Source: Candidatus Jorgensenbacteria bacterium
Lineage (GTDB): Bacteria; Patescibacteriota; Minisyncoccia; UBA6257; GWB1-50-10
Direction of reading: 5' to 3'
NCBI GenBank assembly: GCA_011050075.1
Contig: DRGK01000017.1
Span: 39,838 to 103,837, forward strand
DNA length: 64,000 bases
Shown: positions 4,495-42,461 of the stretch, one piece after another
Layout of the letters: the number at the start of each line of letters is the position of its first letter
Position numbering within the stretch: position 1 is the first letter of the stretch
Made by a program: the position numbers and the translations under genes
The notes under the pieces: generated by a model
What the model saw: only the letters and a program-made list of their open reading frames with translations
The model's database searches: none
Told to the model about the DNA's origin: nothing

Positions 4495-4511
4495 CGGCAG
4501 CGTTTTAAAGT

Positions 4512-5177
4512 ATGCGCAGTCGAGAAGATATACTACAAAAGAAGTGGCAGCGATTGTTACAGCACCGGAGATTTTTTCACCTCATTCCATTTATTGATTT
4601 TGTACTTGTTTCCGGTTCTATGGCACTCGGCACAGCTCGTGAAGAGTCGGACTTTGATGTCATTGTGGGTGCCCGCACAGGCAGAATATTTACGGTCCGG
4701 TTCTTTTGCGTGGTTGTGTTTGAGCTCGCCGGCGTGCGACGCGCTCGCGCTGATCATCGTGGGAACGTCAAGGATAAAGTATGCTTTAATCATTTCGTGG
4801 CACCCGGCGGTTACGTACTGGCATCACCGCGCAACGAGTACTCGGAAGTGATGTACCGGAACCTCGTGCCGCTGTACGGCGATAAGCAAAAGATCAGCAA
4901 GTTCGTAAAGGCGAACGTGTGGGTGCGACGCAGTAGGAAGGTCGACTACGCACGGCATCTGATCGGGAGACTAAATCTCGTCAGTCGTGTGCTGATGATA
5001 GCGCTCGGCGGCAGGGCGGGCGACGCCATTGAGCGAACACTTAAGCGGTATCAGATACACCGTATCGCGAAATATAAGAGGCGTCTTGGAGATTCACTGC
5101 ACATCATTTGCACCGATGACGTCATTCAGTTCCACCCGATGCACAAACACATTAGCACGGGCAGCGTTTCTGATTAG
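4512..5177 (+). CDS. Nucleotidyltransferase-domain protein (Pol-beta-like NTase fold), GC-rich, likely horizontally acquired
   Basis: GS…DxD motif (VSGSMALGTAREESDFDVIV); local GC ~52% versus ~40% in flanking genes. Confidence 0.55.
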   Translation: MRSREDILQKKWQRLLQHRRFFHLIPFIDFVLVSGSMALGTAREESDFDVIVGARTGRIFTVRFFCVVVFELAGVRRARADHRGNVKDKVCFNHFVAPGGYVLASPRNEYSEVMYRNLVPLYGDKQKISKFVKANVWVRRSRKVDYARHLIGRLNLVSRVLMIALGGRAGDAIERTLKRYQIHRIAKYKRRLGDSLHIICTDDVIQFHPMHKHISTGSVSD

Positions 5178-25991: not shown

Positions 25992-27272
25992 ATGCGGGCG
26001 TACAACCCGACATTTGGTGTTCGTTCCTATGTTATAATACACTCAATGCGAAACATCAAATCGCTGAAACTGGCTGTTGAACGACAAATCGCCAACCCGC
26101 CCGGTGAAGTTTCTATTATTGAACTCGTTGATTTATTTGTGGAGTACGCATACAGCTCGCGTGCATCGGATATTCATATTGAACCGGGTGACGATAACGT
26201 AATAGTACGCCTGCGTATTGACGGTATCCTGCAGGATATTTTCACTTTACCCAAGGAACTGCAGTCAGAAGTGATCAGCCGCATCAAAGTACTTTCGGGA
26301 CTAAAAACGGATATTCATCACGTACCGCAGGATGGTAGGTTCAAAGCGAAGATAGGGGATGTGGAGGAGATTGATGTTCGTGTTTCCATTGCACCTACAT
26401 ACTCCGGTGAAAATGCAGTGATGCGTATCTTGGCGGAGACATCGCAGAAGTTCAAATTGGAAGACATTGGGTTTGATAAAAAGCAGTATCGTATGATAAT
26501 ACGCGCGATACACAAGCCGTATGGTATGATCCTCGCGAATGGTCCGACCGGCTCTGGAAAAACCACAACGCTTTACACGATTATCAAGGAGCTCAGTACC
26601 CGTGCGGTATCAATTATCACCATTGAGGACCCTATTGAATATTCTATTGAAGGCATTACTCAGATTCCCGTCAATGTACAGGCGGGGTTGAATTTTGCGA
26701 ACGGACTGCGTTCTATCTTACGGCAGGACCCGAACATTATCATGGTAGGGGAGATTCGCGACACCGAGACGGCGAGTATCGCGGTTAATGCGGCACTGAC
26801 CGGCCATCTCATGCTCTCAACGCTGCACACCAATGATGCGGCAACCACATTTCCGCGTCTTCTGGATATGGGTGTTCCTCCGTTTCTCGTCGCCTCAACA
26901 GTTAATATTGTTATTGCACAGCGTCTGATGCGAAAGGTATGCCAGAGTTGCCGGCAGCAGAAGTTCCTTTCTATTGCTGATATTGAACATCTTGGTCCGC
27001 TCGCCGAGGTATATATAGAAAAGAAAGTGTATACCGTAGGTGCCGGATGTGATGATTGTGACGGACTGGGTTATCGGGGCAGAGTTGGCATCTTTGAAGT
27101 ACTGTCGGTTAATGAGGAAATTCGTTCACTGATTGCTAACCGCTCAAGCGCTTCACAGATCAAGCAGGCGGCCGTAAAAAATGGTATGCATACCATGACT
27201 CAGGGAGCATTTGAAAAAGCAATACAGGGTGAAACGACCATTGAAGAAGTACTCCGTATGATATATGAGTAA
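25992..27272 (+). CDS. pilB: Type IV pilus assembly ATPase (PilB/GspE family)
   Basis: Walker A GPTGSGKTT; Asp/His boxes; tetracysteine CQSC…CDDC; GYRGRVGIFEVL; short form lacking the long N-domain. Confidence 0.85.
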   Translation: MRAYNPTFGVRSYVIIHSMRNIKSLKLAVERQIANPPGEVSIIELVDLFVEYAYSSRASDIHIEPGDDNVIVRLRIDGILQDIFTLPKELQSEVISRIKVLSGLKTDIHHVPQDGRFKAKIGDVEEIDVRVSIAPTYSGENAVMRILAETSQKFKLEDIGFDKKQYRMIIRAIHKPYGMILANGPTGSGKTTTLYTIIKELSTRAVSIITIEDPIEYSIEGITQIPVNVQAGLNFANGLRSILRQDPNIIMVGEIRDTETASIAVNAALTGHLMLSTLHTNDAATTFPRLLDMGVPPFLVASTVNIVIAQRLMRKVCQSCRQQKFLSIADIEHLGPLAEVYIEKKVYTVGAGCDDCDGLGYRGRVGIFEVLSVNEEIRSLIANRSSASQIKQAAVKNGMHTMTQGAFEKAIQGETTIEEVLRMIYE

Positions 27273-28368
27273 AAAACCGCGTAAGAATATACAAGTATCA
27301 CTCTTGCATTTTTTCAATGTTACGTTGATACCGTTACAGGAAAAGGTTAACTTTGCGCGCCATCTCTCAATAGGCATCAAAAGCGGCTTGTCTTTGCTCG
27401 ATACGTTGGATTTGATCAAACAGCAGACGTCGTCCAAGCGTTTTTCTGCGATGGTATCTCGTATCATGGAGGATATTAATAACGGCCAGTCATTAGCAGA
27501 TAGTCTGGAACGGTTTAATTATGTGTTCGGCCACCTGTTTATTAGCATGGTTCGCGTCGGAGAAGTTGGCGGGAACTTATCGGGAACGCTCGCGTATCTT
27601 TCTAACGAACTAAAAAAACAGAGAGAGCTTCATAATCGTGTGAAGTCGGCAATGATATACCCCGCGATTATTTTGATAGTGACGATAGGCATCACCGTGT
27701 TTCTCACTCTCTTTATTTTTCCTAAAATTCTCCCTATATTTCAAAGCTTGGGCGTACAGCTGCCGGCCAGCACACGGCTGATCATACAGACACTTTCATT
27801 TCTTGATAATTTTGGATTCTTGTTATTAGTCAGTATGGCGGTTTTTGCTATTGCGGTACGGGCGCTTCTATTTATACAGAAAGTTCGATACGGTATGCAC
27901 GCAGTGTCTTTGCGAATTCCATTTGTCTCGACGTTAATCATTAATGTAACCATTACGAGCTTTAGTCGTGTGCTCGCGGCGCTCCTCAAGAGTGGTATGA
28001 CACTACTGGACGCGCTCGTAGTTGTAAAAACAACTATCTCAAATTTGGTGTATCAGAAGCACGTCGAACAAATGATAGATGTTGTTCGACGTGGTGAAGA
28101 GATGACCAAGTACCTCAAGAAATATCCAAAACTATTCCCGCCGATGCTTGTCGGAATGATCAAGGTAGGTGAGGGAACCGGTAATTTAGAAGACAACCTG
28201 CTCTATCTTGCCGAGTACTACGAAAGCGAAGTTGATGAGACCGTCAATAACCTAACCACCATTCTTGAGCCGCTTCTCCTGCTCTTTATGGGTGTCATCG
28301 TTGGATTCATAGCGCTTTCCATTATCACACCGATTTATAAAGTAACGCAGGGACTAAACATTCGCTAA
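27265..28368 (+). CDS. pilC: Type IV pilus / type II secretion platform protein (PilC/GspF family)
   Basis: Two GspF repeats, 3 TM, ~367 aa; overlaps the pilB stop. Confidence 0.85.
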   Translation: MSKKPRKNIQVSLLHFFNVTLIPLQEKVNFARHLSIGIKSGLSLLDTLDLIKQQTSSKRFSAMVSRIMEDINNGQSLADSLERFNYVFGHLFISMVRVGEVGGNLSGTLAYLSNELKKQRELHNRVKSAMIYPAIILIVTIGITVFLTLFIFPKILPIFQSLGVQLPASTRLIIQTLSFLDNFGFLLLVSMAVFAIAVRALLFIQKVRYGMHAVSLRIPFVSTLIINVTITSFSRVLAALLKSGMTLLDALVVVKTTISNLVYQKHVEQMIDVVRRGEEMTKYLKKYPKLFPPMLVGMIKVGEGTGNLEDNLLYLAEYYESEVDETVNNLTTILEPLLLLFMGVIVGFIALSIITPIYKVTQGLNIR

Positions 28369-28853
28369 TGCTGTCCCTCAAACGTAAAACCTATAAACCC
28401 CTACCTACCGGCAGGCAGGTAAAATCTCAAAAAGGGTTCACTCTCCTTGAGATAATGATCGTTATTGGCCTCTTTGCTTTGCTCGTAGGCATTAGTATAC
28501 CGTTTGGACTTGATGTATACCGCAGCTACGTACTAATTTCCGAAACACGAAATATGGTTAGTTTCCTGCGACGCGCGGAGACGTTGTCTTTCACCAATAC
28601 CAGGAATGATTCGTATGGAGTTATGGTCATGAACGATCGATTCGTTGTGTTTCGTGGTGCGTCGTTTGCAACGCGTGATACTGCATTTGATGAAGAGTAT
28701 CTACGCTCGCCATTAGTAATCGTGTCGGGTATCGCGCATATTGTGTTTGCTGCGGTGACGGGAAGACCAGACATAATGGGTACCACAACATTCAGCAACG
28801 GCGTAAATGAACAAACAGTATTTATTAATGAACATGGCACACTTTTCTGGTGA
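28368..28853 (+). CDS. Prepilin-type (class III signal) pseudopilin with long basic leader
   Basis: …KPLPTGRQVKSQKG|FTLLEIMIVIGLFALLVG: Gly(-1), Phe(+1), Glu(+5) then a hydrophobic helix. Confidence 0.75.
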   Translation: MLSLKRKTYKPLPTGRQVKSQKGFTLLEIMIVIGLFALLVGISIPFGLDVYRSYVLISETRNMVSFLRRAETLSFTNTRNDSYGVMVMNDRFVVFRGASFATRDTAFDEEYLRSPLVIVSGIAHIVFAAVTGRPDIMGTTTFSNGVNEQTVFINEHGTLFW

Positions 28854-30249
28854 AAAGGGACAATCTCTCATAGAAATTCTTATTGCGTTCACACTCATCG
28901 TGCTTGGTATCGGGTCGGCGACGATACTGGTGTTTGGTGGACAAGGGCTGCTTATTGACAGGGGAAATACGGTACAAGCTCGTTCTCGTGCACAGGAAGG
29001 GTTACTTGCGGTAGAGCAGATGATACAGAACGATTGGGATTCGGTGTCAAATGGTACGTATGGCATTGTGTTCACCAACGGTACCTGGCAGCTATCCGGC
29101 GAAAGTACTATTGATGACCGATATACACGGTATGTCTCGGTAACCAGTATTGATGATAATCGGAAGGAGATTACAAGCAGTGTTGTATGGGAAACGGGTG
29201 GAGAAGGTTCCCGGATTGTTGAGTTTGTAACACTGGTTACCAACTGGCAAAATGTTGCACCGCCGTCACCGGATCCGGGAGATACGGGAGGTGGCGGAGT
29301 GAGCGGTAACTGGCAAAACCCGAGAACACTGGGTTCTGTTGATCTGGGTCCGGGAAATGAAGCATCAGACATTGATGTGATCAATAAGATCGTTTATATG
29401 TCTGCCACCGCGTCTTCTAAGAACAAGCCTGACTTCTTTATTATTGATGCAACCGATGGGGAAAATCCGGTAATGATATCTGAGCTTAATACCGGTCCGT
29501 CACTCAATTCCATTGATGCCAGCGGCAACTATGCATATGTGGCAAACGATGATGCGCAGGCACAGTTGCAGGTTATTGATGTGAGTGACATTAATAATCC
29601 TTCTATTACTGCGTCCCTTGAAGTTGCTGCTGACGCTGGAGGTACTGCTATATTCTTTACTAACGCAAAAATATATCTGGGCACCTACCAAAACGGTGCG
29701 GCTGAGTTTTATATCATTGATGTTTCGGACCCCTTAAACCCCAGCGTACTAGGCTCGTATGAAATGAACGGAACGGTGCGTGATATATATGTACGTAATA
29801 GTCGTGCATATATCACCGTTGAACGGGAAGTGGATACGGTAGCTATACTAAACGTTTCAACTCCTTCATCAATCGTATCGGAAGGAGGCGAATATATTGA
29901 TGAAGCATACGGTATCATGAGCATACGACCAGCACTCACCTTTATCGGCATTGATACTGATTTGGTTATTGCGGATACTGCGAATGCAGCCGCAGTGGCT
30001 ACAATTGGCTCTATCGGAATTGGCGGGAACGTCAATGATATTGCGGTGAGGGATTATCTCGTCTTTATTGCAACATCAAATAACAACAAAGAGTTCCAGA
30101 CAATTAACGTATCTGATCCAAGTAACCCATCAGTTCATTCTTCTTTTAATTTTTCGCAGGTTGGAACCGGTATTGATTACGAGGATAATATTGTCTACAT
30201 CTCAGTGAGAAGCAATGACGCTTTACGTATCATCACATCATCTCCATGA
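28807..30249 (+). CDS. Pilin-like protein fused to an LVIVD-repeat beta-propeller domain (candidate pilus tip/adhesin)
   Basis: N-terminus …GEKGQSLIEILIAFTLIVLG (prepilin-like); at least 4 LVIVD-type repeats (AYVANDDAQAQLQVIDVSDINNPS; IYLGTYQNGAAEFYIIDVSDPLNPS; AYITVEREVDTVAILNVSTPSS; VFIATSNNNKEFQTINVSDPSNPS). Confidence 0.65.
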   Translation: MNKQYLLMNMAHFSGEKGQSLIEILIAFTLIVLGIGSATILVFGGQGLLIDRGNTVQARSRAQEGLLAVEQMIQNDWDSVSNGTYGIVFTNGTWQLSGESTIDDRYTRYVSVTSIDDNRKEITSSVVWETGGEGSRIVEFVTLVTNWQNVAPPSPDPGDTGGGGVSGNWQNPRTLGSVDLGPGNEASDIDVINKIVYMSATASSKNKPDFFIIDATDGENPVMISELNTGPSLNSIDASGNYAYVANDDAQAQLQVIDVSDINNPSITASLEVAADAGGTAIFFTNAKIYLGTYQNGAAEFYIIDVSDPLNPSVLGSYEMNGTVRDIYVRNSRAYITVEREVDTVAILNVSTPSSIVSEGGEYIDEAYGIMSIRPALTFIGIDTDLVIADTANAAAVATIGSIGIGGNVNDIAVRDYLVFIATSNNNKEFQTINVSDPSNPSVHSSFNFSQVGTGIDYEDNIVYISVRSNDALRIITSSP

Positions 30250-30764
30250 AGACTCATAAACCCCTACCTACCGGCAAGCAAGTAAAATCTCAAAAAGGAT
30301 TCACGCTTATTGAAGCGCTTATCTATGCCACGCTATTAGGTATCTTTTTAGGCAGTGTCATTATTGTAGTTGGGAACATTCTTGCCTCTACCGATAGCAC
30401 ACTGGTGCGTAATGAGGTACTTGCCAATCAAGAGTTCGTTGAACAGAAACTTTCATGGCTTGCAGAACAGGCGACCGCGGTTACAGAACCACTCTCAGGA
30501 AGTTCCTCAACGCGAGTAGTTTTCACTGAACCGATATCCGGCACTAATCCGGCAATTTTTGAACTGCAGGACGGGAAAATTATGCTAACCCTCGGTTCCG
30601 GTGAAAGCGCTGCGCTGACCAATAATCGCGTGCGCGCGTCCGATTTCACCATTACCCACTACACATTAAACGGTGCATCACTGATACGAGTCTTATTTGG
30701 ACTTGAGCACATTGTCTACAGTCAAGTAACGAGCACGACCACACTCACCTTTATTATTCCGTAG
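30246..30764 (+). CDS. Prepilin-type pseudopilin with long basic leader (paralog of 28368..28853 at the N-terminus)
   Basis: MKTHKPLPTGKQVKSQKG|FTLIEALIYATLLGIF. Confidence 0.75.
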   Translation: MKTHKPLPTGKQVKSQKGFTLIEALIYATLLGIFLGSVIIVVGNILASTDSTLVRNEVLANQEFVEQKLSWLAEQATAVTEPLSGSSSTRVVFTEPISGTNPAIFELQDGKIMLTLGSGESAALTNNRVRASDFTITHYTLNGASLIRVLFGLEHIVYSQVTSTTTLTFIIP

Positions 30765-30767
30765 CAT

Positions 30768-31163
30768 ATGCAACACGATACATATCAACAGGGGTACGTA
30801 GCGGTTATGAGCGCTATTATCATTACCGCTATTCTGCTTGTCGTCGCATTGACCTTTAGTTCCAGTAGTTTTATGGGTAGGTTTGATACACAAGCAGTGG
30901 AATTCAAGATACTGACACGGAACTTAGCGCAGGGATGTATCGCGCATGCACAGTTAATGCTCGCGCTGGGAAGCTATACTGGCAATGAGGATGTGGTAGT
31001 GGGTGCATATACCTGCCGCGTCGTCTCCGTTACGCAGGGGAGCGGTATCATAACAGTGCAGGTAACTGCAATCATAGAGGACCACACTACAAATCTTGAA
31101 GCAGTCTTGGATAGCGCTACACTCGCTATTAATTCAGTTATAGAGATAAGTACGTTTGAGTAA
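30768..31163 (+). CDS. Membrane-anchored hypothetical protein in the pilus operon (PilX/minor-pilin-like?)
   Basis: N-terminal hydrophobic helix (VAVMSAIIITAILLVVAL) without a canonical G-F-x-x-x-E; operon position. Confidence 0.4.
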   Translation: MQHDTYQQGYVAVMSAIIITAILLVVALTFSSSSFMGRFDTQAVEFKILTRNLAQGCIAHAQLMLALGSYTGNEDVVVGAYTCRVVSVTQGSGIITVQVTAIIEDHTTNLEAVLDSATLAINSVIEISTFE

Positions 31164-31230
31164 ATATGGTATACTATCAATAGATAAGCTTTTTTAAGAA
31201 AAGGTCGTGTTTTTTTCAACATTATAGTAA

Positions 31231-31701
31231 ATGTCTAAAAATAGAGTGCAAAAAGTTAAAACAGAAGGTGGTTTTACATTAATTGAACTTTTGGTTGTTA
31301 TCGGCATCATCGCCATCCTTGCGGGTGTGGTGATTGTTGCCCTAAACCCGGCGCGACAGTTCGCGCAGGCACGCAACAGCCAACGTTGGTCAAATGTAAA
31401 TGCGATTTTGAATGCTGTAGGTCAGAACTTAGCTGATAACCGTGGGATATTCACCTGTGCTGCAGGAGTTATTCCAACGTCTGCGACAAATATGTCATCC
31501 TCTACATATGATATAGCGACATGTATTGTACCAACATACATGCCGACTATGCCATTTGACCCAAGTGATGCGAGCGCATACTACACCGATACGGCTGATT
31601 ACAACACGGTGTACAGTATTGTACGCAGTGCGACGACCAGCCGAATTACTGTCTCTTCACCATCAGCAGAATTAGAAGAAGCAATTGCAGTAACGAGATA
31701 G
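31231..31701 (+). CDS. pilA: Type IV major pilin (PilA-like) with prepilin leader
   Basis: MSKNRVQKVKTEG|GFTLIELLVVIGIIAILAGVVIV; own promoter and strong terminator; C-terminal Cys pair (FTCAAG…IATC). Confidence 0.8.
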   Translation: MSKNRVQKVKTEGGFTLIELLVVIGIIAILAGVVIVALNPARQFAQARNSQRWSNVNAILNAVGQNLADNRGIFTCAAGVIPTSATNMSSSTYDIATCIVPTYMPTMPFDPSDASAYYTDTADYNTVYSIVRSATTSRITVSSPSAELEEAIAVTR

Positions 31702-31815: not shown

Positions 31816-32088
31816 ATGAAATTGCCGGAGTTTTTTAAACCAATTTTGTGGTCTTATGACTTTCCTGCCATAGATTCTGAGAAGAACAAGAAAGTTATTA
31901 TTGTGAATACGATAAATTACGGTGATTTAAAGCATTGGCATTGGTTGATACAACATTATGGGAAAGAGGCAGTTAAAGATGTTTTAGAACAGATCCCTTC
32001 AAGTGAAATAAGACCGCGGGCGCTTCGTCTCGCGACAACTATTTTCTCTATTAAAAACTTCAATTATGCACCTCGAGGTATTAACTGA
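31816..32088 (+). CDS. Small protein partner of the downstream nucleotidyltransferase (possible antitoxin-like component)
   Basis: 90 aa; overlaps the next ORF by 23 nt (coupled); AT-rich segment. Confidence 0.35.
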   Translation: MKLPEFFKPILWSYDFPAIDSEKNKKVIIVNTINYGDLKHWHWLIQHYGKEAVKDVLEQIPSSEIRPRALRLATTIFSIKNFNYAPRGIN

Positions 32089-32683
32089 GAAGGGCAAAGA
32101 AATTTTTTCCAGGCTTGATCGTTTTAATAAATTTTACCTCGCTGGTGGGACAGCATTAGCTTTGCAAATCGGACATAGGGCTTCAATTGACTTTGACTTA
32201 TTTTCCAAAAAAGAAATCCAGAAGGACTTTCTGTCTGAGATTGAGGAAGCTTTTCCTGGAGAGAACATATCAGTAGTTGTAAATAATCCCGATGAGGTAA
32301 CTGTTTTCGTAAGTGAAACGAAAGTTACTTTTTTGAAATATCCTTTCCCGTTGATATATGACCTTGTTAATTATGAAAGCGTAAACTTAGCAACCATTAA
32401 AGAAATAGCCGGAATCAAGGCCTATACAATTGGCAGAAGAGGATCTTTTAAAGATTACGTAGATTTATACTTTATTCTTTCTGAGAAGTATTTTTCTCTG
32501 AATGAGATTATTGACGTAGCTGAAAAGAAATACGGAAGTGATTTTAACTCACGACTTTTTCTTGAACAGCTTCTTTATTTGGAAGATATTACCGATACTG
32601 AAATTGTATTTTTAAAAGACAGCGTAGATAAAAAAGAACTAAGAAAATTTTTTGAGGAAGAAATAAAAAAGATTAAGATATAA
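32066..32683 (+). CDS. AbiEii/DUF1814-like nucleotidyltransferase (toxin-like NTase of a two-gene module)
   Basis: FYLAGGTALALQIGHRASIDFDLF matches the AbiEii N-terminal GGTAL…S/EDxDF core. Confidence 0.5.
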   Translation: MHLEVLTEKGKEIFSRLDRFNKFYLAGGTALALQIGHRASIDFDLFSKKEIQKDFLSEIEEAFPGENISVVVNNPDEVTVFVSETKVTFLKYPFPLIYDLVNYESVNLATIKEIAGIKAYTIGRRGSFKDYVDLYFILSEKYFSLNEIIDVAEKKYGSDFNSRLFLEQLLYLEDITDTEIVFLKDSVDKKELRKFFEEEIKKIKI

Positions 32684-33623: not shown

Positions 33624-35117
33624 ATGACTAAGTTTAAAACATACTATCTTTACTTCACCGTCTTTGTAACGGGTGCAGTAGTATTGATAATTGAAATCCT
33701 GGGAACAAGAATTCTCGCACCATTTTATGGTACAACAATTTTTGTGTGGTCTTCACTTCTCAGTGTCGCGCTCGGTTTTCTCGCGCTCGGCTATTGGGTG
33801 GGTGGTATTTGGGTTGATAGGAAGCCAAGCTTCTCCAATTTTTATGGGATCGTTTTTCTTGCTGCCACCACACTAGTACTGGCTATTAAACTGAACCGAG
33901 TTGTTCTCGTTTTCTCAGACCAATTCGGTTTGAAGTTTGGTCCACTCATTGCTTCGGTTTTACTTTTTGCGATACCACTTTTCTTATTGGGCATGATAAC
34001 GCCTTTTGCTATACGTTTGCGTACTAAATTAATAGAAAATGTGGGAACACGATCTGGGGGTATTTTTGCTATAGCGACCATTGGATCATTGATAGGAGCT
34101 CTACTCTCGGGTTTCTTCCTCATACCCATTTTATCTATAACGAATATTTTTTATATCACCACCTTACTTCTTGTAGTAATATCTGTTCTTGGTCTTTTAA
34201 TTTCGGGAAAAGAACAAATTAGTGGGAACCGTTATAGATGTCTCTTACTTTTCTTGATTTTTCTTGCTGTACTCTCAATTCCTTTGTTTAATATTGAAGC
34301 ACATAAGAATTCAAGAATTCTTTTTCAAAAACAAGGTTTCTACGGTGACATAAAAGTAGTTGAAATCGGAGAATCACGTTGTCTTGTAGTTAATGGGATG
34401 ACACAGACCTGTGTAAAAATAGAAACATATGACGGAGGTCTGTCATACATAGAAGAAATAGGGAGGATTTTAGCACTACGGCCGCAAGACAAAGACATCT
34501 TGCTTTTAGGACTTGGTGGAGGAAGTATAATGTCTTTTTTTTCAGAAATTCAGGAAATAGACATAATTGAAATAGCCCCCAAAATTATACATATCGCAGA
34601 AAGATTTTTTAACTTTCATCCAGACTTAAATCAGCGCATTATAATAGATGATGCCCGCAGTTTTTTGAGGAGGACAGACAAAAAATACGACCTTATTATT
34701 GCCGACGTGTTTTCGGCTACTACAATCCCTCTCCATCTTTCCACAAAAGAGTATTTTGAACTTTTAAAGAGTCACTTACATTCGGAGGGTCTTGTTCTTT
34801 TTAATTTTATTGGTCGTACTGGGCCAGAGGATCGGTATACAACCTCCTTTGTACGGACGCTACGTTCCGTTTTTCCCTCGGTGATAATTACAAGTCCAGT
34901 ACCAGGACTACAAAGTATGGTTCTCCATGCCTCGGTTGATGAGTCATACGCTCCTCGTATAGGTGAGGAGTTTTACGAAGTACCGGTAGCTGACGATATG
35001 GGAATACTATTGACTGATAATAAAAACCCCCTGGAATTGCTCGCCTTACCTAACCTTGAAGTGTTGCGAAGGAATTTAAAGTCATCCGGTGGTTTTGATT
35101 TGTTTTTCACCAACTGA
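33624..35117 (+). CDS. Membrane-anchored spermidine synthase-like (polyamine aminopropyltransferase fold) protein
   Basis: ~7 TM N-terminal domain fused to LLLGLGGGSIM…IDIIEIAPKII…IIADVF (SpeE/AdoMet-MTase-like). Confidence 0.6.
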   Translation: MTKFKTYYLYFTVFVTGAVVLIIEILGTRILAPFYGTTIFVWSSLLSVALGFLALGYWVGGIWVDRKPSFSNFYGIVFLAATTLVLAIKLNRVVLVFSDQFGLKFGPLIASVLLFAIPLFLLGMITPFAIRLRTKLIENVGTRSGGIFAIATIGSLIGALLSGFFLIPILSITNIFYITTLLLVVISVLGLLISGKEQISGNRYRCLLLFLIFLAVLSIPLFNIEAHKNSRILFQKQGFYGDIKVVEIGESRCLVVNGMTQTCVKIETYDGGLSYIEEIGRILALRPQDKDILLLGLGGGSIMSFFSEIQEIDIIEIAPKIIHIAERFFNFHPDLNQRIIIDDARSFLRRTDKKYDLIIADVFSATTIPLHLSTKEYFELLKSHLHSEGLVLFNFIGRTGPEDRYTTSFVRTLRSVFPSVIITSPVPGLQSMVLHASVDESYAPRIGEEFYEVPVADDMGILLTDNKNPLELLALPNLEVLRRNLKSSGGFDLFFTN

Positions 35118-35131: not shown

Positions 35132-36547
35132 ATGCCCCGCTTTTTAAATAGAAATTCCTTAGTTTTCATAGCACTTGCTACACTTGCAACTTTGCTTGTC
35201 TTTACCGTTTTGCCCTCTATCACAAATGCAGGCGGTACGTTTACCACCAACCAAGACAGTTTTAGGTTTAAAGGCGATACAGGCGGAGAAACGGCAACAG
35301 ACTGGATTGATGCCGAAGACACGAATATTACTCAAGCAAAAAACAGCAACTTTCGCATACGTATTCACTTTCATGAATCAGGTAATGCAGCCGGCGATGT
35401 GACACCTCTTTTAGAGTACAAAACTGCCTCTGGTAATGCATGTGCTAATACGACAGGGTGGACAACTATTACAACTGCAACGACAAATGCATTTGCTCTT
35501 GTCGATTCGTCACAGTTTGTTGAAGCAGTTGCAACTACTGAACAGTTATCAAGCTTTGGCGGAATAGGTTTTGTTGCTGGAGAACTCTTGGACCAAACTA
35601 ATCCCGGTACAATCATTACCATCGGTGCAAAAAACGAAAGTGAGTATGTATGGAACATGAAAGCAACGGACAATGCGGTCGATGGCACGGCGTACATATT
35701 TCGGGTGAGTAATAACGGCACCAACTTAACAAACTATAATGCCTGCCCGCAGGTAACAGTTCCTGCGGGCAATGCACCGCCCGTTGTTTCAAACGTTGCG
35801 TTGGATGGAGGAACAGCAATCACGCTCACAGAAAACACAACTAAAGCTGTTAGCGCTACGGCAGATGTATCAGATCCGAACGGCGCTGACGATATTATTT
35901 CAGCGACCTCAACCATCTACCGTTCCGGTGTCGGTGCGGGATGTACCGCTGATGATGAGAATTGCTACAAAATAGCGAGCTGCACGTTTTCTGGTGCGAC
36001 GAGTACCGTGACCTGCACGGCGAATATACAGTTCTTTGCCGACCCGACCGATGCAAGCTCTACTGCTTATTCTGCTCAGGATTGGCAGGCAGAAATTACG
36101 GTAACCGACTCTGCCAGTGCAACCGGTGCATCGAGCACTCTATCCGGCGTAGAGCTCAATACACTCTGGGCTATCGATATAACCGCAACTATTAACTACG
36201 GGGCTGTTAGTCCAACCGCAGATACAGGGAGTACAAATCAAAGCGTTACGGTTACCAACACAGGTAATGCGGCGATCGATATAGAGGCATCGGGGACTGA
36301 TATAACGCTTGGCGGTAGTACGATAGGAGTTGCCAATCAAAAGTATGCGACCTCCACCTTTACGTACTCGAGCTGTACAATCTGTACGGCACTTTCCTCA
36401 ACCCCCGCTGCATATGAGGTTGATTTACTCAAGCCGACCTCGGCCACGCCGGTTACAGATTTAATCTACTGGGGACTTGCGGTGCCAAACGGCACTGCGC
36501 AAGGGGTGCACAGCGGAACCAATACCTTTACCGCAATAGGCGATTAG
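35132..36547 (+). CDS. Secreted Thr/Ala-rich surface protein, paralog A
   Basis: Signal peptide; conserved Cys-containing module (RSGVGAGCTADDENCY); C-terminal VTVTNTGN… CARDB/DUF11-like module; ends …GTNTFTAIGD. Confidence 0.55.
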   Translation: MPRFLNRNSLVFIALATLATLLVFTVLPSITNAGGTFTTNQDSFRFKGDTGGETATDWIDAEDTNITQAKNSNFRIRIHFHESGNAAGDVTPLLEYKTASGNACANTTGWTTITTATTNAFALVDSSQFVEAVATTEQLSSFGGIGFVAGELLDQTNPGTIITIGAKNESEYVWNMKATDNAVDGTAYIFRVSNNGTNLTNYNACPQVTVPAGNAPPVVSNVALDGGTAITLTENTTKAVSATADVSDPNGADDIISATSTIYRSGVGAGCTADDENCYKIASCTFSGATSTVTCTANIQFFADPTDASSTAYSAQDWQAEITVTDSASATGASSTLSGVELNTLWAIDITATINYGAVSPTADTGSTNQSVTVTNTGNAAIDIEASGTDITLGGSTIGVANQKYATSTFTYSSCTICTALSSTPAAYEVDLLKPTSATPVTDLIYWGLAVPNGTAQGVHSGTNTFTAIGD

Positions 36548-36593
36548 TACAGGGTTGAATATGATATAATATACATAAAGAGGATGTAATAAT

Positions 36594-37541
36594 ATGAGAA
36601 GTACACTTTCTCTTCTTTTAAAAGTTTATATTTTCGCGATTCCCCTCGCGCTGCTACTGGTCGGGGGACTTTTAATGCTCACAAACACTATTTTAGCAGG
36701 CACTTCAAGCACATCAGTAACCGTTCAAGGCGCTGTCCCCACAGTTACCGTTGTTAACATTTCTCCCGATCCAATTATCCCGACCGAAAATGCAACGACG
36801 AGCATTACCATTACTGCAACAATTTCCGATTCAAACGGATGCGATGATGTATTCACAAGCGGTACTATCGCGGTCGCACTCTATCGGTCAGGTGTTGGTG
36901 CCAGTTGCTCGGTCGATGACAACAACTGTTATCAGAACATCACTTGGGCGGAGGTTGGCAATACCTGCGGGGGCGGTGCAGATACAAGCGGGGATATGGT
37001 TGCCACGGCAACGATATGGTACTTTACCGAAGCAACCGATGCGAGTTCAACATACTCAGGGGAAACATGGCAGGCTCAGGTCAAGGCAGTTGATGAGTCT
37101 AATGCAAGCTCTACCGCTACCGACGCGTCGCCCCCTGAGCTCAATTCGGTATATGCTCTCACTGTTGACAGTGCCATTGCGTACGGTTCTATGTCAGCAG
37201 ATGCTACGAGTACCTTGTCTGAGATTGGACAGTCAACGACGACGGTAACCAACACGGGAAATTACAAGATTGATACCGAGGTATCGGGTACCGATATGAC
37301 GGGTTCAGGTACCATTATTGCAAGCAAACAAAAATATGCTACCTCATTGTTAGGATATGAATCACTTACATACACACTCTCAACGTCTGCTACTGCAAGA
37401 GATTTAAATATTGTGAAAGCGACCTCTTCTTCTACGCCGTCAACGCAAGATACCTACTGGGGTATTTCTATCCCTAGCGCTCAGGCGGAAGGAGGTTATA
37501 GCGGAACCAACACATTTACCGCTATCTATTCAGCCGATTAG
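36594..37541 (+). CDS. Secreted Thr/Ser-rich surface protein, paralog B of 35132..36547
   Basis: Signal peptide; same modules (RSGVGASCSVDDNNCY; TTVTNTGNYKID…; ends …GTNTFTAIYSAD). Confidence 0.55.
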   Translation: MRSTLSLLLKVYIFAIPLALLLVGGLLMLTNTILAGTSSTSVTVQGAVPTVTVVNISPDPIIPTENATTSITITATISDSNGCDDVFTSGTIAVALYRSGVGASCSVDDNNCYQNITWAEVGNTCGGGADTSGDMVATATIWYFTEATDASSTYSGETWQAQVKAVDESNASSTATDASPPELNSVYALTVDSAIAYGSMSADATSTLSEIGQSTTTVTNTGNYKIDTEVSGTDMTGSGTIIASKQKYATSLLGYESLTYTLSTSATARDLNIVKATSSSTPSTQDTYWGISIPSAQAEGGYSGTNTFTAIYSAD

Positions 37542-37576
37542 TGCAGAGTCTACCAATATAGTAGCTAACGCGGCAA

Positions 37577-38608
37577 TTGTCCGCGCTTTGTTTTCTTAGT
37601 ATGATTACAGATATGCATATACGTTCTCTAACGTTGATTGTCATTACGTTGTCCTTACTTGCACCATCGGTAGTGGGTGCGTTCGGGGTTTCACCTCCAT
37701 TTATCACAGTACATAAACTTGTGGCTGGCTCGCGTTATGAAACAACAATTACCCTCGTTCAGGGACAGCCGGATGTTGATTTGGAAGTTAAGGCAGTGTT
37801 TGATGTACCTGAAAAGATTAGAGAATGGTTCAGTGTTGATAAGGGATATCAGTTTATAATCCCCGCTGGCGTTCAGCAGTTCCCGATACAAGTTGTTATT
37901 CAGGTTCCGAAAGATACCGGTCTTGGTATTTATAACGGGCACTTACGGATTAACACTGTTCCACAACGGAAAGAAGGTGAACAGATCGCAATCTCCGTTG
38001 GCGCACGCATCGATATCAACATTACGGTAGGGGATGATATTGTCGTTGATTTTTCAGTTAAGAAAATTGACATCTCTGACATTAGAGAAAACGAGTCACC
38101 TCAGATCGTTGTCACTATAGAGAATACGGGGAATGTTCCCATTACACCGGACAGAGCAACATTTGACCTGCTTGATAAGTACGGGGAAGTACGGCTCGGC
38201 TTTGCACAAACGGAGGACTTGCCAGAGACGCCAGCCTTTGAAACTAAAACTTTTGTCGTAGCATTTCCCATAGACATTAAGCTCGGCGTGGGAGAGTACT
38301 GGGGTGAAGCACGATTATATAGAGGTGGGACAATAATTGGGGATGTAAAAACTATCTTCAATGTAACTCCAAGACCAAATTATATACTCTTTATTGGTAT
38401 TGGCTTACTTATTATTGGAGCCGGTGTTTCTATATTTATATTTAAAAAGAAAGCAAGTCGTAAGCCAACGAGTCGTAAGAGAACAGTAACAAAAAAGAAA
38501 GCTGTAAGGAAAACTGCCCGTAAACCAAAAAAACAAGTTAGTAGTAAGAAAAAATTGAATAAGAAAAAGACAGTAAAAACAAAGCAAAAGAAGAGCATTG
38601 GCTCATGA
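37577..38608 (+). CDS. Secreted CARDB-like surface protein with C-terminal TM anchor and poly-lysine cytoplasmic tail
   Basis: Signal peptide; …VVTIENTGNVPITPD…; TM (ILFIGIGLLIIGAGVSIFIF), then KKKASRKPTSRKRTVTKKKAVRK…. Confidence 0.5.
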   Translation: MSALCFLSMITDMHIRSLTLIVITLSLLAPSVVGAFGVSPPFITVHKLVAGSRYETTITLVQGQPDVDLEVKAVFDVPEKIREWFSVDKGYQFIIPAGVQQFPIQVVIQVPKDTGLGIYNGHLRINTVPQRKEGEQIAISVGARIDINITVGDDIVVDFSVKKIDISDIRENESPQIVVTIENTGNVPITPDRATFDLLDKYGEVRLGFAQTEDLPETPAFETKTFVVAFPIDIKLGVGEYWGEARLYRGGTIIGDVKTIFNVTPRPNYILFIGIGLLIIGAGVSIFIFKKKASRKPTSRKRTVTKKKAVRKTARKPKKQVSSKKKLNKKKTVKTKQKKSIGS

Positions 38609-40149
38609 AATGGTACGCGTTTACGGCAGTTTGTTTCGCAGTAATCGGACTCATGATAACGGTGGGCATTACAAATGCTGGAACAGCTTCCGTAACGGTA
38701 ACGGTAACGCTTGCCGAGTGCTCTGACAGTATTGACAACGACGGTGATTTTTTAACCGACTATCCCAATGACACGGAGTGCGATTCGGGTACCGATAACA
38801 GTGAAAACATTGCCGGCACCGAGACGCATGCAACATCTACTATTGAAACAAGCGGGGGCAGTTTTTCTTTTGATAATGCTGATAGTTTAGCCGTTGATTT
38901 TACGTTTCAGAACGGGTTTCATGGTAGTTCAGTACGGTTATTCGTGAACTCGTATGCAACTAGCTCTTTTGAATCGAGCAAGCCAGCACCTTCTGGGAAG
39001 AGCTTCGTTGGTAAAACATACGACATCATTCTGTACGAGAACGCATCACCGAATAATTCTATTGCAACAACTTCCAAAGCTATTACCATCGTGATGCAAT
39101 ATTTGGATAGTGATGTAAGCAGTATCGATGAAAGCAACGTTCTGCCGTATCGTTGGAGTACAAGCACATCGGCGTGGGCGATAATATCTGGCAGCTCACT
39201 TGATACATCAAACAATAAAGTAACTTTTTCTACCACCGATTTCAGTTCATTTAGCTTGCTCGGCACAAACCTTTCTGAATTCCAATGCAGTGACGGTATT
39301 GACAATGATGGGGATGGTAAGATTGACTATCCATCCGACCCTGGGTGTTCATCAACAACCGATGATAATGAAACAGACCCGCAGCAGGCACCAGGTGGCG
39401 GTGGAGGCGGCGGTGCTACGATAACAGCACCGCCTCAGGTTACATTCAGCGGGTTAGCATATCCCGGCAGTAAAGTAACAATACTGAAAGATGCTCAAGT
39501 AGCTGCGGTAACTATAGCCGGTCCCGATGCGAAATTTAAAGCGGGCCTGTCCAAACTCTCAACCGGAAACTACAATTTCGGCATTTGGGCTGCTGATACA
39601 TCCGGTCGAAGATCGGTTACACATACATTTGCACTGAGCGTTAAGCCCGGCTCTTCTGTTACGGTAAGCGGCATTTTCCTGCCTCCTACCATATCAATAG
39701 ACAAAAGTGAGGTAAGGAAAGGTGATGTATTGGGTATTGCGGGGCAGAGCGCTCCTGAGGCTAACGTTTCTCTTATTGTTCATTCACATTCTATTGTGAA
39801 GAAGGTGACCGTTGATAAGAGCGGGGCGTGGTTTTATAAACTGGACACCACCGAGCTTGAGTATGGTAAGCACTCCACACAGGCGAAGTCAGAAACGGAA
39901 AACGATATCAGTTCACTCTCGCAACTACTGCTTTTCAAAGTTGGTACAAAAAGCAAGAAAGCCATTCCCTTAGCAGTAGTAGAACTTAAGGGTGACGTGA
40001 ACAGCGATGAGAAAGTTAATTTGGTTGATTTCAGTATCGCAGCGTATTGGTATAAAAGACCGTCCCCCCCATCCGCCGTTGATTTAAACAACGATGGGAA
40101 AGTTGATTTAGTGGACTTCAGTATTATGGCATACTGGTGGACGGGATAG
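38605..40149 (+). CDS. Secreted protein with Ca-binding Asp-rich Cys-flanked motifs and a C-terminal dockerin domain
   Basis: Signal peptide; CSDSIDNDGDFLTDYPNDTEC and CSDGIDNDGDGKIDYPSDPGC; C-terminal GDVNSDEKVNLVDFSIAAYWY…DLNNDGKVDLVDFSIMAYWW, a dockerin type-I-like duplicated Ca-loop/helix. Confidence 0.65.
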   Translation: MKWYAFTAVCFAVIGLMITVGITNAGTASVTVTVTLAECSDSIDNDGDFLTDYPNDTECDSGTDNSENIAGTETHATSTIETSGGSFSFDNADSLAVDFTFQNGFHGSSVRLFVNSYATSSFESSKPAPSGKSFVGKTYDIILYENASPNNSIATTSKAITIVMQYLDSDVSSIDESNVLPYRWSTSTSAWAIISGSSLDTSNNKVTFSTTDFSSFSLLGTNLSEFQCSDGIDNDGDGKIDYPSDPGCSSTTDDNETDPQQAPGGGGGGGATITAPPQVTFSGLAYPGSKVTILKDAQVAAVTIAGPDAKFKAGLSKLSTGNYNFGIWAADTSGRRSVTHTFALSVKPGSSVTVSGIFLPPTISIDKSEVRKGDVLGIAGQSAPEANVSLIVHSHSIVKKVTVDKSGAWFYKLDTTELEYGKHSTQAKSETENDISSLSQLLLFKVGTKSKKAIPLAVVELKGDVNSDEKVNLVDFSIAAYWYKRPSPPSAVDLNNDGKVDLVDFSIMAYWWTG

Positions 40150-40168
40150 TGAAAACTAAACTGCAATT

Positions 40169-41068
40169 ATGAAACAATTCTTGATCAGTATTTGTCTCTT
40201 ATTCTTCGCATTCGGCATAAGTATGGTGAGTGCCGTTGAGCTATCTTTTGATTCTCCCGTATATAAAATAGGACTGGGGAAATTTATTGCTATTGATGTC
40301 TTAGTAGATTTCCAAGGTGAGGCAATCAATACATTAGAAGGAAGAATACACGTTCCCGAATCTTTTGATATTGTAAACACAAACACTGCGGGATCGGTGA
40401 TAAATCTCTGGATTCAGGAACCGAAAATAGAAGTTAATAGTGTCTATTTCTCCGGCATCATACCGGGTGGATTTGGTAGTCAGCTTAGTGACGGTACGGG
40501 CATCGGTAACGAGTTGGAGATATTAACTATTACATTAGAAGCCAAGAGAGAAGATGCAAACAGCATTACGGCAGGGGACACCAAAGCACTTTTGAACGAT
40601 GGATTTGGAACGGAAACCGATATAGCTACAAAGCCATGGTTTTATGAAATTTCTGAAAGCTATACCGGGGGAGGCGTTGAAGCAGTAATAGATAGCGAGC
40701 CGCCCGGGAATTTTAAGCCGGAAGTTACCAGAAGTGAAACCGTGTTTTCAGGGCAATACTTTGTAGTTTTCAGTACACAAGATAAAGAATCGGGAATGAA
40801 ACGCTATGAGGTTGCAGAACAGCGCGGAAGAAAAACTGAGAACTACTCAGTTTTGGACTGGAAAATTACAAAAAGCCCCTATATTTTGGAAGACCAGACA
40901 TTAAGGAGCTACATCTACGTAAAAGCAATTGACAATACGGGGAATGAGATAATTGCAGTAGTTCCGCCGCATAACCTATTAGTACGGTATTGGTATGTAC
41001 TCATTTTGTTTATAATAATAGTAGGAATTAGTTTCGCTTATACTAAAACAAAGCGAAAGAATTCATGA
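40169..41068 (+). CDS. Membrane-anchored cohesin-like domain protein 1
   Basis: Signal peptide; beta-rich domain alignable to type-I cohesin (…GRIHVPESFDIVNTNTAGSVINLWIQEP…); C-terminal TM (YVLILFIIIVGISFAY) plus KTKRKNS. Confidence 0.5.
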   Translation: MKQFLISICLLFFAFGISMVSAVELSFDSPVYKIGLGKFIAIDVLVDFQGEAINTLEGRIHVPESFDIVNTNTAGSVINLWIQEPKIEVNSVYFSGIIPGGFGSQLSDGTGIGNELEILTITLEAKREDANSITAGDTKALLNDGFGTETDIATKPWFYEISESYTGGGVEAVIDSEPPGNFKPEVTRSETVFSGQYFVVFSTQDKESGMKRYEVAEQRGRKTENYSVLDWKITKSPYILEDQTLRSYIYVKAIDNTGNEIIAVVPPHNLLVRYWYVLILFIIIVGISFAYTKTKRKNS

Positions 41069-42147
41069 AGAAAAAGACATTACTCTTAAGTACGATACTG
41101 ATTTTATTTGGCGTGGTTACAACTGCCCACGGGGCTAACTTGTATTTCTCTCCATCGGGAGGAAGTTTCTATAAAGGCGAGAATTTTACCATTGGTGTTT
41201 TCGTAAATACAGACAGGGCCACTAATGCCATCTCCGGCGTCTTAACGTTTCCCACTAGATACGTTGAGGCGGTGAGCGTGCGCAAGAGTAATTCCATAGT
41301 CAATCTTTGGGTTCAGGAACCCTCATTTTCCAATATAGGTGATTTCGGCAATATCAGGTTTGAAGGTGTTATTCTCAACCCAGGCTTTACTGGCACCAGA
41401 GGAAAAATACTTGATGTTGTTTTTCGAGTAAAGAACAATGGTTTTATGAATTTGGAATTCGTTGAGGTCGCTATTCTAGCTAACGATGGGTTAGGAACAA
41501 ATATAGCAGTTCCGGACGGTGAAGCTAGCTTTGTACTAAAATCAAAACCGGTATACTCACCGGAGTCTGTAGAAATAACTGGAGGAAAACAAGAATTATC
41601 TGCAACCTCAACGCCACCGATTATAATAGTCAGGGAAGTAAGACCAGAACCACCATCAGGTATACTTGGATTATGGGAAGTTTTACCGACCTGGATAAAA
41701 ACCATCACTTTGGCTCTTGTTGGTCTGGCAACAATTCTACTCGGACTTGTTATTATCAGTCTCGGTATAATTGTTTTGATTTGGCTTTGGAGTTATATAT
41801 GGCGTAGGAGGAATATAATTGAGGGTTGGCTTGTATCATTTCCGAGAGCTGTAAATCATTTTACACGCAGAGTCCTTGTGTTTATACGCGGAGCAGAAAA
41901 GGAAATAAAAGGAGATTTGAAATATAGCATTCCACGAGTGAAAGACATAGTTAAGGAAGCAGGGCGCGAGCCACCGTTAAAGCAGTTAGTGAAAGATTAC
42001 TTTAGCTCAATACGTAAAATCATAAAACGCTTTTTCACGAAAAATGAATCGTGGCAAGAGAGTGTACTAGATGACATATCAAATTCTAAAACACCTGATC
42101 CTAAAAGGTCTGAAGATATAATACAGGAAGAGGAAGAACAGCTATGA
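41065..42147 (+). CDS. Membrane-anchored cohesin-like domain protein 2 with conserved cytoplasmic tail
   Basis: …GENFTIGVFVNTDRATNAISGVLTFPTRYVEAVSV… / …GKILDVVFRVKNNGFMNLEFVEVAIL… resemble CipA cohesin strands; TM; ~100-aa basic tail. Confidence 0.5.
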   Translation: MKKKTLLLSTILILFGVVTTAHGANLYFSPSGGSFYKGENFTIGVFVNTDRATNAISGVLTFPTRYVEAVSVRKSNSIVNLWVQEPSFSNIGDFGNIRFEGVILNPGFTGTRGKILDVVFRVKNNGFMNLEFVEVAILANDGLGTNIAVPDGEASFVLKSKPVYSPESVEITGGKQELSATSTPPIIIVREVRPEPPSGILGLWEVLPTWIKTITLALVGLATILLGLVIISLGIIVLIWLWSYIWRRRNIIEGWLVSFPRAVNHFTRRVLVFIRGAEKEIKGDLKYSIPRVKDIVKEAGREPPLKQLVKDYFSSIRKIIKRFFTKNESWQESVLDDISNSKTPDPKRSEDIIQEEEEQL

Positions 42148-42461
42148 TAAAGGCGATATTTTTCTTTATTGTGGGAGTGGCAGCAGTAATTGTGTTACTG
42201 CTCGGTGTTGGTTTAGTGGTAGTTGTCTTGGTCTGGTTTTGGAACTACGGACGATACGAAGGTGGAAAACTTCTTAGGAAAGTCCTTGTCTCCGCAAGGG
42301 CAACGGAGGAAGAAATCGAGAGTGATGTGCAGTATAGCGTCCGGAGAGTAAAGAAAACCCTTGAAAAAACCAAGAAGAATCTATCATTGAAAGAAATGGT
42401 GAATGCTTACTGGAAATCGGTTGAAAAAATTGTAGAGCGCTTTCTTACGAAAAACAAGTAA
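42144..42461 (+). CDS. Small membrane protein, paralog of the TM plus cytoplasmic tail of 41065..42147
   Basis: WFWNYGRYEGGKLLRKVLVSARATEEEIESDVQYSVRRVKKTLEK… parallels WLWSYIWRRRNIIEGWLVSFPRAVNHFTRRVLVFIRGAEKEIKGDLKYSIPRVKDIVKE…. Confidence 0.5.
   Translation: MIKAIFFFIVGVAAVIVLLLGVGLVVVVLVWFWNYGRYEGGKLLRKVLVSARATEEEIESDVQYSVRRVKKTLEKTKKNLSLKEMVNAYWKSVEKIVERFLTKNK

Follow-up and report, generated by a model that had tools for sequence, protein, structure and literature searches.

Cohesins and dockerins are protein modules whose coupling is calcium-dependent, of high affinity and easily tested in vitro. According to Peer et al. (2009), as cited in PMC10066038, such modules are known outside cellulosomes in all three domains of life. 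The Patescibacteria, or candidate phyla radiation (CPR), account for much of bacterial diversity, and most of them are thought to live attached to host cells; the molecules with which they build their surfaces and attach are known only from a few cultivated Saccharibacteria. The only mention of a patescibacterial dockerin found in the literature is a passing one, which concerns SEML1_0315 of the saccharibacterium Southlakia epibionticum, a dockerin-domain envelope protein that is essential on the host in transposon sequencing (Tn-seq) and was interpreted as glycan-targeting by its authors (PMC10633639). Here, a cluster of seven genes, g1 to g7, is described from a stretch of 64,000 nucleotides (nt), referred to below as the window, of a Candidatus Jorgensenbacteria bacterium (contig DRGK01000017.1, positions 39,838 to 103,837), a source that agrees with the CPR-type cell suspected in an initial annotation made from the letters alone. 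We judge it rather likely that the cluster is a cell-surface display or anchoring apparatus of Patescibacteria, built on cohesin-dockerin coupling and without a role in polysaccharide degradation. In the literature on cohesins and dockerins in Patescibacteria, Parcubacteria, CPR, DPANN and Saccharibacteria, no description of such a system was found, as the initial annotation had also held for a system of this composition. Features that appear to be undescribed are that the cohesins are anchored by transmembrane helices, that one of the two has a cytoplasmic tail, that one dockerin gene and two cohesin genes form a fixed set, and that these lie in a conserved, CPR-specific surface cassette of six genes.

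The genes of the cluster and the modules within them, given in amino acids (aa) where positions in a protein are meant, are as follows:

35132-36547, + strand: g1, open reading frame (ORF) of 471 aa
36594-37541, + strand: g2, ORF of 315 aa
37577-38608, + strand: g3, ORF of 343 aa with a TTG start
38605-40149, + strand: g4, ORF of 514 aa
38716-38805, + strand: acidic double-disulfide repeat 1 of g4 (CSDSIDNDGDFLTDYPNDTEC...), coordinates read from the sequence
39274-39357, + strand: acidic double-disulfide repeat 2 of g4, the best NF033662 stretch, aa 224-251
39988-40146, + strand: dockerin module of g4 (PF00404), two calcium-binding loop-helix repeats at the extreme C-terminus (...DFSIMAYWWTG)
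40169-41068, + strand: g5, ORF of 299 aa
40238-40654, + strand: cohesin-like domain of g5, aa ~24-162, by homology to the g6 family
41065-42147, + strand: g6, ORF of 360 aa
41134-41544, + strand: cohesin domain of g6, aa 24-160, by fold and homologs
41809-42144, + strand: cytoplasmic helical tail of g6, aa 249-360, by family alignment and AlphaFold2 model
42144-42461, + strand: g7, ORF of 105 aa

The seven co-directional genes at 35132-42461 are present exactly as first annotated, with spacings of -4 to 46 nt between neighbours; for the limits of an operon, promoter and terminator scans gave counts not above those of shuffled controls. Hydropathy shows an N-terminal signal-like hydrophobic segment in g1 to g6, so that the earlier description of all seven products as signal-peptide proteins holds for these six and fails for g7, which has an N-terminal transmembrane anchor and no signal peptide. 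In g1, g2 and g4 this segment is the only one of its kind, and these proteins are therefore predicted to be secreted. In g3, g5 and g6 it is combined with a C-terminal transmembrane helix followed by basic residues, from which all three are predicted to be type-I membrane proteins; the C-terminal anchoring earlier proposed for g5 and g6 is thereby sustained, and their cohesins would lie outside the cytoplasmic membrane.

Sequence similarity alone would have rejected the cohesin assignment of g5 and g6, including the NCBIfam scan of both proteins, which returned no cohesin match; the assignment was rescued by fold comparison and transitive homology. Each protein starts with a signal peptide and the cohesin domain, followed in g5 by an uncharacterised region, a transmembrane helix and a short basic tail, and in g6 by a disordered linker, a transmembrane helix and a kept helical cytoplasmic tail of ~110 aa. 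The g6 protein, which is 100% identical to ENH86_02560 of a Candidatus Jorgensenbacteria metagenome-assembled genome, has 912 homologs. In an AlphaFold2 model of g6, for which 48 homologs were used, a β-sandwich at aa 24-160 has a predicted local distance difference test (pLDDT) value above 90, and when this model was compared with the PDB by Foldseek, the top 50 matches were all cohesins (E 1e-8 to 1.7e-5, probability 1.0, target TM-score 0.6-0.81). Type I cohesins (4ums, 4dh2, 2vn6) and Archaeoglobus 2xdh lead the ranking and those of types II and III stand lower; the modelled jelly-roll is superposable on solved cohesins, and the predicted fold is closest to type I and archaeal non-cellulosomal cohesins. 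Moreover, the longer g6-family members P0093, P0098, P0102, P0105 and P0119 pass the Pfam Cohesin threshold, with 25.4-29.9 bits against 24.1, and one of them, P0098 (28.6 bits), shares 49% identity with g6 over the same N-terminal domain (E 3e-48). The g5 domain is covered by homology: the two N-terminal domains share 27% identity (E 4e-9), and their family profiles align in hhalign with a probability of 100% (E 1.8e-39). Within the g6 cohesin, the stretch LANDGLGTN has its A-N-D and both G residues invariant. Because of the g6 fold, the homologs of the P0098 type and the alignment of the g5 and g6 profiles, the two cohesins are regarded as divergent but genuine, and the cohesin-like N-terminal domains of the initial annotation are borne out. 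The label as such is not new, for databases already name some g6 relatives 'cohesin domain-containing protein'.

The presumed partner, g4, consists of a signal peptide, an acidic Cys repeat, an insert domain, a second acidic repeat, a Gly-rich linker, two immunoglobulin (Ig)-like domains and a C-terminal dockerin. The dockerin, which had been recognized earlier as a repeat pair at the end of the protein, is confirmed by Pfam PF00404 at aa 462-508 (29.2 bits, gathering cutoff 22.9, E 1.1e-6) and by two calcium-loop repeats, DVNSDEKVNLVD and DLNNDGKVDLVD, which are identical at 14 of 20 positions over the repeat. The corresponding tandem EF-hand-like calcium-loop segments (D-x-N/D-x-D...D, ~22 residues), DVNSDEKVNLVDFSIAAYWY and DLNNDGKVDLVDFSIMAYWW, are likewise identical at 14 of 20 positions, with helices that are predicted. 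The D-x-N-x-D...D-F-S-I motif is kept in 23 aligned sequences, the window and 22 orthologs; orthologs are also flagged Dockerin_1, and in those bearing the dockerin (198-463 aa) it always occupies the extreme C-terminus, ending in ...DFSIMAYYWTG. It is the best-kept part of g4, with a mean pairwise identity of 52% versus 36% for the rest. The acidic repeats match NCBIfam NF033662 in two stretches, the score of 37.2 bits falling short of the cutoff (41), and the repeat at the N-terminus is kept in g4 orthologs; the Ig-like region likewise gives a sub-cutoff match to Pfam Big_6 (26.0 bits versus 27.6). In one relative, L004 (10873-11888), the g4 ortholog appears as two ORFs of 101 aa (acidic repeat) and 237 aa (Ig domains and dockerin), reflecting either a frameshift or assembly error or a genuine split.

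The presence of both cohesin and dockerin modules could also be taken to indicate a minimal cellulosome-like system for polysaccharide degradation. This is barely credible, since Pfam and NCBIfam scans detected no glycoside hydrolase, no other catalytic domain and no carbohydrate-binding module (CBM) in g1-g7 or in the orthologous cassettes of other genomes, each anchor protein has one cohesin, and the whole 64-kb window has a single dockerin-type loop pair, that of g4. The lack of glycoside hydrolases in the cluster had been noted from the start.

Related loci were sampled from g6 homologs (L001-L003 and L033-L036) and from g3 homologs (L004-L006, together with L007-L032 from a scan of one genome per GTDB species), and were compared by tblastn and by custom hidden Markov models (HMMs) for the cohesin and dockerin modules. 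All 26 loci of the scan are labelled either as Patescibacteria or unspecifically, for instance as 'bacterium'. The window and 25 further distinct loci each have exactly one dockerin ORF with two cohesin ORFs directly behind it, first one of the g5 type and then one of the g6 type; this triad, conserved across distantly related Patescibacteria, is cut by a contig end in two more loci. The cluster recurs beyond chance, its gene order being found in more than 20 other species-level loci. A large g1-like gene, a g2-like gene (~310 aa) and g3 precede the triad in this order in about 20 g3-ascertained loci, and in 26 loci g3 comes directly after genes of the g1/g2 type. Every g6-ascertained locus has the triad, with the g1/g2 module detected only in L001 and a g3-like gene in L001 and, weakly, in L035 and L036. 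Because the triad is constant and detection of g1-g3 varies with the sampling, g4-g6 are taken as an invariant core and g1-g3 as a frequent but separable block. The seven genes do not therefore form the unit first drawn: what is conserved is the three-gene core, often with g1-g3 before it, and g7 has no counterpart in any fetched locus.

Housekeeping genes recur beside the cassette: dnaX in three loci (L005, L008 and L028), YchF in both L034 and the window. This fits a vertically inherited envelope locus. A horizontal-transfer island was ruled out, as the GC content of the cluster (0.41-0.47) is the same as that of the remainder of the window and housekeeping neighbours are common to other genomes. 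Two relatives have additional genes nearby. In L006, a third, shorter cohesin-like ORF of 195 aa (15482-16066, - strand; cohesin HMM E 6e-11) lies just downstream of the triad on the opposite strand. In L035, two 23S_rRNA_IVP / bAvd-like genes (1101-1481 and 4376-4729), of the kind accompanying diversity-generating retroelements, stand among surface-protein genes upstream of the triad, and an intein-containing RtcB lies downstream.

Losses and fusion of the two modules bear on whether they work together. In four loci with ~9 kb of downstream sequence (L017, L019, L025 and L027) the cohesin genes are absent; g4 is then without its dockerin in L017 and L019, and there is no g4 at all in L025 and L027. 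The g4 of L019, which lacks the dockerin, itself ends in a hydrophobic, transmembrane-like C-terminal segment. One ORF of 491 aa in L009 (10933-12405) unites two acidic Cys repeats with a dockerin, a cohesin, a C-terminal region like that of g5 and a hydrophobic, transmembrane-like end, and is, to judge by its sequence, a Rosetta-stone fusion of dockerin and cohesin partners. The joint loss, the transmembrane-like end in L019 and the L009 fusion all suggest that the dockerin-cohesin pair serves to fix g4 to the membrane, and binding of the g4 dockerin to a cohesin of g5 or g6 is predicted from this genomic context of adjacency, co-loss and fusion. It has to be weighed against the possibility that the modules do not bind each other, the dockerin being a calcium- or glycan-binding module, the cohesin-like domains spacers or carbohydrate binders, and the genes merely co-regulated envelope genes. 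Non-cellulosomal modules are often without an identified partner, at least as Peer et al. (2009) are cited in PMC10066038, the lone essential dockerin protein of a saccharibacterium was read as glycan-targeting (PMC10633639), and the cohesins of the window are very divergent in sequence. Strict adjacency, joint loss and the occurrence of one dockerin-cohesin fusion make this improbable all the same, as does the strong conservation of the dockerin helices (DFSI...) and of the LANDGLGTN stretch of the cohesin across deep lineages. The L009 fusion protein could itself self-bind or form chains.

The upstream half of the cassette is of a different make. In the secreted-type g1, a variable N-terminal domain (aa ~30-200) precedes a kept C-terminal tandem Ig-like module (aa ~205-471) common to g2, and g2 is a module-only paralog consisting of a signal peptide and two tandem Ig-like β-sandwiches; the two proteins are 40% identical over 290 aa (E 2e-47). 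The g2 model (pLDDT 92.7) shows the two sandwiches in tandem, with generic Ig folds as its PDB matches, and a marine-sediment metagenome has yielded a fragment identical to g2. Of the earlier reading of g1 and g2 as Thr-rich CARDB-like paralogs, the paralogy and the Thr content of 16% (16.3% in g1) stand, whereas CARDB found no Pfam match in either. In relatives, g1-like proteins measure 466-2070 aa, and 8033 aa in L006. There, within a contig of 1.27 Mb, the tandem-Ig module forms the C-terminus of the 8033-aa ORF (L006 1-2128), and hence can end giant proteins.

As for g3, it comprises a signal peptide, two β-rich ectodomains, a transmembrane helix at aa 270-288 and a Lys-rich cytoplasmic tail of 55 aa. 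Its true start is probably the ATG at 37601 instead of the TTG at 37577, since the near-identical P0121 (335 aa) begins 8 codons later. The Lys-rich tail seen earlier is present, but the CARDB-like character assigned with it is only reached indirectly: g3 itself scores 12.7 bits against CARDB (PF07705), below the cutoff of 22.7, and longer family members pass in the equivalent second domain (P0398 with 27.2 and P0408 with 25.7 bits), which makes domain 2 of g3 CARDB-related by transitive comparison. An exhaustive profile search places 2981 representative clusters in the g3 family at E<=1e-3. Among its longer members, P0354, P0365, P0398, P0408, P0420, P0425, P0432 and P0445 (456-505 aa) have a further membrane region and a C-terminal SH3b, typically a peptidoglycan-binding module, in place of the poly-Lys tail. 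In word-based searches, none of 100 g2 homologs or 82 g3 homologs carried a precomputed Pfam domain, and those named by organism belong to Patescibacteria or unclassified bacteria. Profiles of the g2 and g3 families gave only sub-threshold PDB matches, to the last strand of the GH123 N-terminal β-sandwich, and a kinship between the two families was rejected (hhalign probability 2%).

The composition of g1 and g2 also invites a structural explanation, namely a surface layer (S-layer) or envelope lattice in which g1 and g2 are the subunits, g3, g5 and g6 the anchors, and the cohesin-dockerin pair one connector between lattice and membrane, so that the purpose would be structural and not adhesive. 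This overlaps with a display apparatus, differs from it mainly in purpose and is compatible with most of the data. Both proteins are secreted-type, all-β and Ig-like with 16% Thr, and the position of the cassette among housekeeping genes (dnaX, YchF) in several genomes, with no compositional anomaly, is as expected for a core envelope feature. A lattice is nevertheless unlikely, because Pfam and NCBIfam scans of g1-g7 found no SLH or known S-layer domain, relatives differ in the length of their g1-like proteins (466 to 8033 aa) more than is usual for a lattice subunit, and the fold matches are generic.

Past its cohesin, the g6 model continues into a disordered linker, a long transmembrane helix and a helical tail. 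In this tail, E280 and D284 are family-invariant and an RF...N motif is near-invariant. The small g7 protein, an N-terminal transmembrane helix with a helical tail and no ectodomain, is 35% identical to the transmembrane-plus-tail region of g6 (E 4e-17), which upholds its initial description as a paralog of the cytoplasmic tail of a cohesin protein. No g7 counterpart was found in any fetched locus, where g7 matches only g6 tails.

From these components a mechanism can be proposed for the display apparatus. The g4 protein would be secreted via Sec, and g5 and g6 would present their cohesins outside the cytoplasmic membrane; the calcium-bound dockerin of g4 would then plug into the cohesin of g5 and/or g6, tethering g4 non-covalently to the membrane. 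Near-symmetry of the repeats is a hallmark of dual-binding-mode dockerins, and the near-symmetrical repeats of g4 might allow binding in either orientation, to either cohesin, or perhaps a bridging of both. Because the g6 tail is conserved, and duplicated here as g7, it may tie the complex to an intracellular partner or drive oligomerisation, with g7 taking part in this lineage. More speculatively, g1, g2 and g3 would be the outward-facing part, in which g3 serves as a second membrane anchor with its poly-Lys tail, the tandem-Ig module of g1 and g2 docks on g3 and/or the g4 adaptor, and a large, variable adhesin-like protein is shown on a conserved base. The cluster may also have a part in host attachment.

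Several points weigh against this mechanism. The cohesins of the window itself fail the family test that had been proposed for them, as neither g5 nor g6 matches Pfam Cohesin (PF00963) at E<=1; PDB searches with the sequences of both (phmmer) and with the g6 family profile (hmmsearch) brought no cohesin but only noise; and in the close g6 family, weak Pfam Cohesin matches are confined to 4 of 48 members, with a best E of 6e-4. The triad occurs without detectable g1/g2 modules in g6-sampled loci, g1-g3 occur without the triad in L025 and L027, and all co-occurrence counts carry an ascertainment bias, the loci having been found via g3 or g6. In addition, the proposal gives no reason why two cohesin genes accompany each dockerin gene, the actual ligands of the cohesins might be other dockerin proteins, encoded elsewhere in the genome, and contact of g1-g3 with g4-g6 is speculative. 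Overall, the interpretation in the initial annotation is partly supported: its core is borne out, while the gene unit, the pilus link and the CARDB label need correcting. A more ambitious version would make the six-gene cassette one Patescibacteria-specific, envelope-spanning organelle, in which the two membrane cohesins, one with its conserved cytoplasmic domain, are the base, and a dockerin adaptor plugged into them holds the tandem-Ig foot of a giant, rapidly varying adhesin (up to 8,000 aa in relatives) via the acidic Cys repeats and/or g3. Episymbionts of the Paceibacteria type would attach to their hosts chiefly by this device, and their host specificity would depend on the variable g1-type protein; this version is distinctly unlikely.

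The region upstream of the cluster contains a type IV pilus operon, with the following features:

25992-31701, + strand: type IV pilus operon, 3.4 kb upstream of g1
25992-27272: PilB
27265-28368: PilC
31231-31701: pilin

This operon further holds three N-methyl (pseudo)pilins and an LVIVD β-propeller protein of 480 aa (28807-30249, + strand), in which a prepilin-like N-terminus (...GQSLIEILIA...) is fused to the LVIVD / β-propeller domain and which is a candidate pilus-tip or minor-pilin adhesin. Because the cluster runs in the same direction as the operon, and a pilin also lies near the cassette in L001 and L007, the cluster might be an accessory module of the pilus whose proteins are displayed on, or assembled by, the pilus machinery. 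The operon does lie upstream on the same strand, yet 'just downstream' overstated the proximity of the cluster, as 3.4 kb and four unrelated genes intervene, namely a small ORF, an AbiEii-type toxin, a 306-aa protein of unknown type and a 7-transmembrane spermine-synthase-like protein. A pilin is found within 10 kb of the cassette in only 2 of about 30 loci (L001 and L007) and PilB or PilC near it in none of them, so that a conserved pilus link does not hold up; Pfam and hydropathy also reveal no prepilin N_methyl signal in g1-g7. A functional link to the type IV pilus was accordingly rejected on synteny, and the accessory module is very improbable. Among the intervening genes, the small ORF overlaps the AbiEii-type nucleotidyltransferase toxin (31816-32683, + strand; PF08843, E 7e-14), and the two look like a type IV toxin-antitoxin pair. 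The spermine-synthase-like protein (33624-35117, + strand; 497 aa) has 7 predicted transmembrane segments and a C-terminal spermine/spermidine-synthase-like domain, and its end is 14 nt upstream of g1; L001, alone among the loci, has an ortholog (42% identity) at the same position.

The cassette consists only of exported or membrane proteins and is kept in many species-level lineages. As it relies on a well-understood and tractable coupling, it offers concrete, testable candidates for surface assembly in CPR bacteria. It would also widen the cohesin-dockerin principle to anchors with membrane helices, a cytoplasmic domain on a cohesin protein, a fixed 2:1 ratio of cohesin to dockerin genes and a function that has nothing to do with the breakdown of carbohydrates. 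Should variable proteins of the g1 type turn out to be what is displayed, the locus would lend itself naturally to tracking how host range varies among uncultured CPR bacteria.

How the cluster relates to described systems can now be set out. The Csc/WxL clusters of Firmicutes encode a large and a small protein with a common C-terminal module and a transmembrane-anchored DUF916 protein with a basic tail. The same layout is seen in g1-g3, where a large variable and a small protein have their C-terminal module in common and the next gene encodes a type-I membrane protein ending in a cationic tail, but it is an analogy only: WxL (PF13731), DUF916 and DUF3324 had no Pfam match in g1-g3 at E<=1 and none among 50 g3-family members at E<=0.1, the g2 model resembles generic Ig folds only, and Csc/WxL was rejected as an explanation of g1-g3. 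Within the Patescibacteria, SEML1_0315 resembles g4 in being a dockerin-domain surface protein; it differs in being ~927 aa long and monocistronic, with an alpha/beta hydrolase and tRNA-Glu as neighbours and no cassette genes adjacent, and on this size and genomic context it was rejected as a g4 ortholog. PMC10633639 and its available supplements make no mention of a cohesin.

With the cellulosome, the cluster shares the cohesin-dockerin pair and a dockerin with a duplicated calcium-binding loop-helix as in type I dockerins. Unlike the cellulosome, the cluster lacks a multi-cohesin scaffoldin, CBMs and enzymes, in keeping with the first judgement that this is not a cellulosome, and the gene ratio is inverted to two cohesins per dockerin. 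The cohesin-like modules of Clostridium perfringens (2jh2, 2vo8, 2w1n) also exemplify coupling of the cohesin-dockerin type outside fibre degradation, and 2vo8 gives the highest target TM-score with g6, 0.81; these modules, however, sit on large secreted enzymes (glycosidases, toxin complexes) and assemble soluble complexes instead of serving as membrane anchors. A closer likeness is found in OlpA and OlpC of Clostridium thermocellum and ScaE of Ruminococcus flavefaciens, in which a single envelope-fixed cohesin captures a dockerin protein directly, as is predicted here. The OlpC cohesin 4dh2 is the second-best structural match of g6, and OlpA 3ul4 is also among the top 50. Whereas OlpA, OlpC and ScaE are anchored by SLH domains or sortase wall attachment and have cellulosomal enzymes or scaffoldins as ligands, g5 and g6 are anchored by a transmembrane helix, to which g6 adds a conserved cytoplasmic domain, and the predicted ligand is a small non-enzymatic adaptor encoded next door. 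Like the non-cellulosomal modules known elsewhere, those described here come without a cellulosome or glycoside hydrolases (within the window) and as single modules on otherwise non-enzymatic proteins, and the cohesin 2xdh of Archaeoglobus fulgidus is the third-best structural match of g6 (E 1.5e-8, target TM-score 0.70). They differ from those modules in that one dockerin and two cohesins form a fixed syntenic triad, the cohesins being anchored by C-terminal transmembrane helices. This triad is kept across many Patescibacteria and usually lies inside a cassette of six genes.

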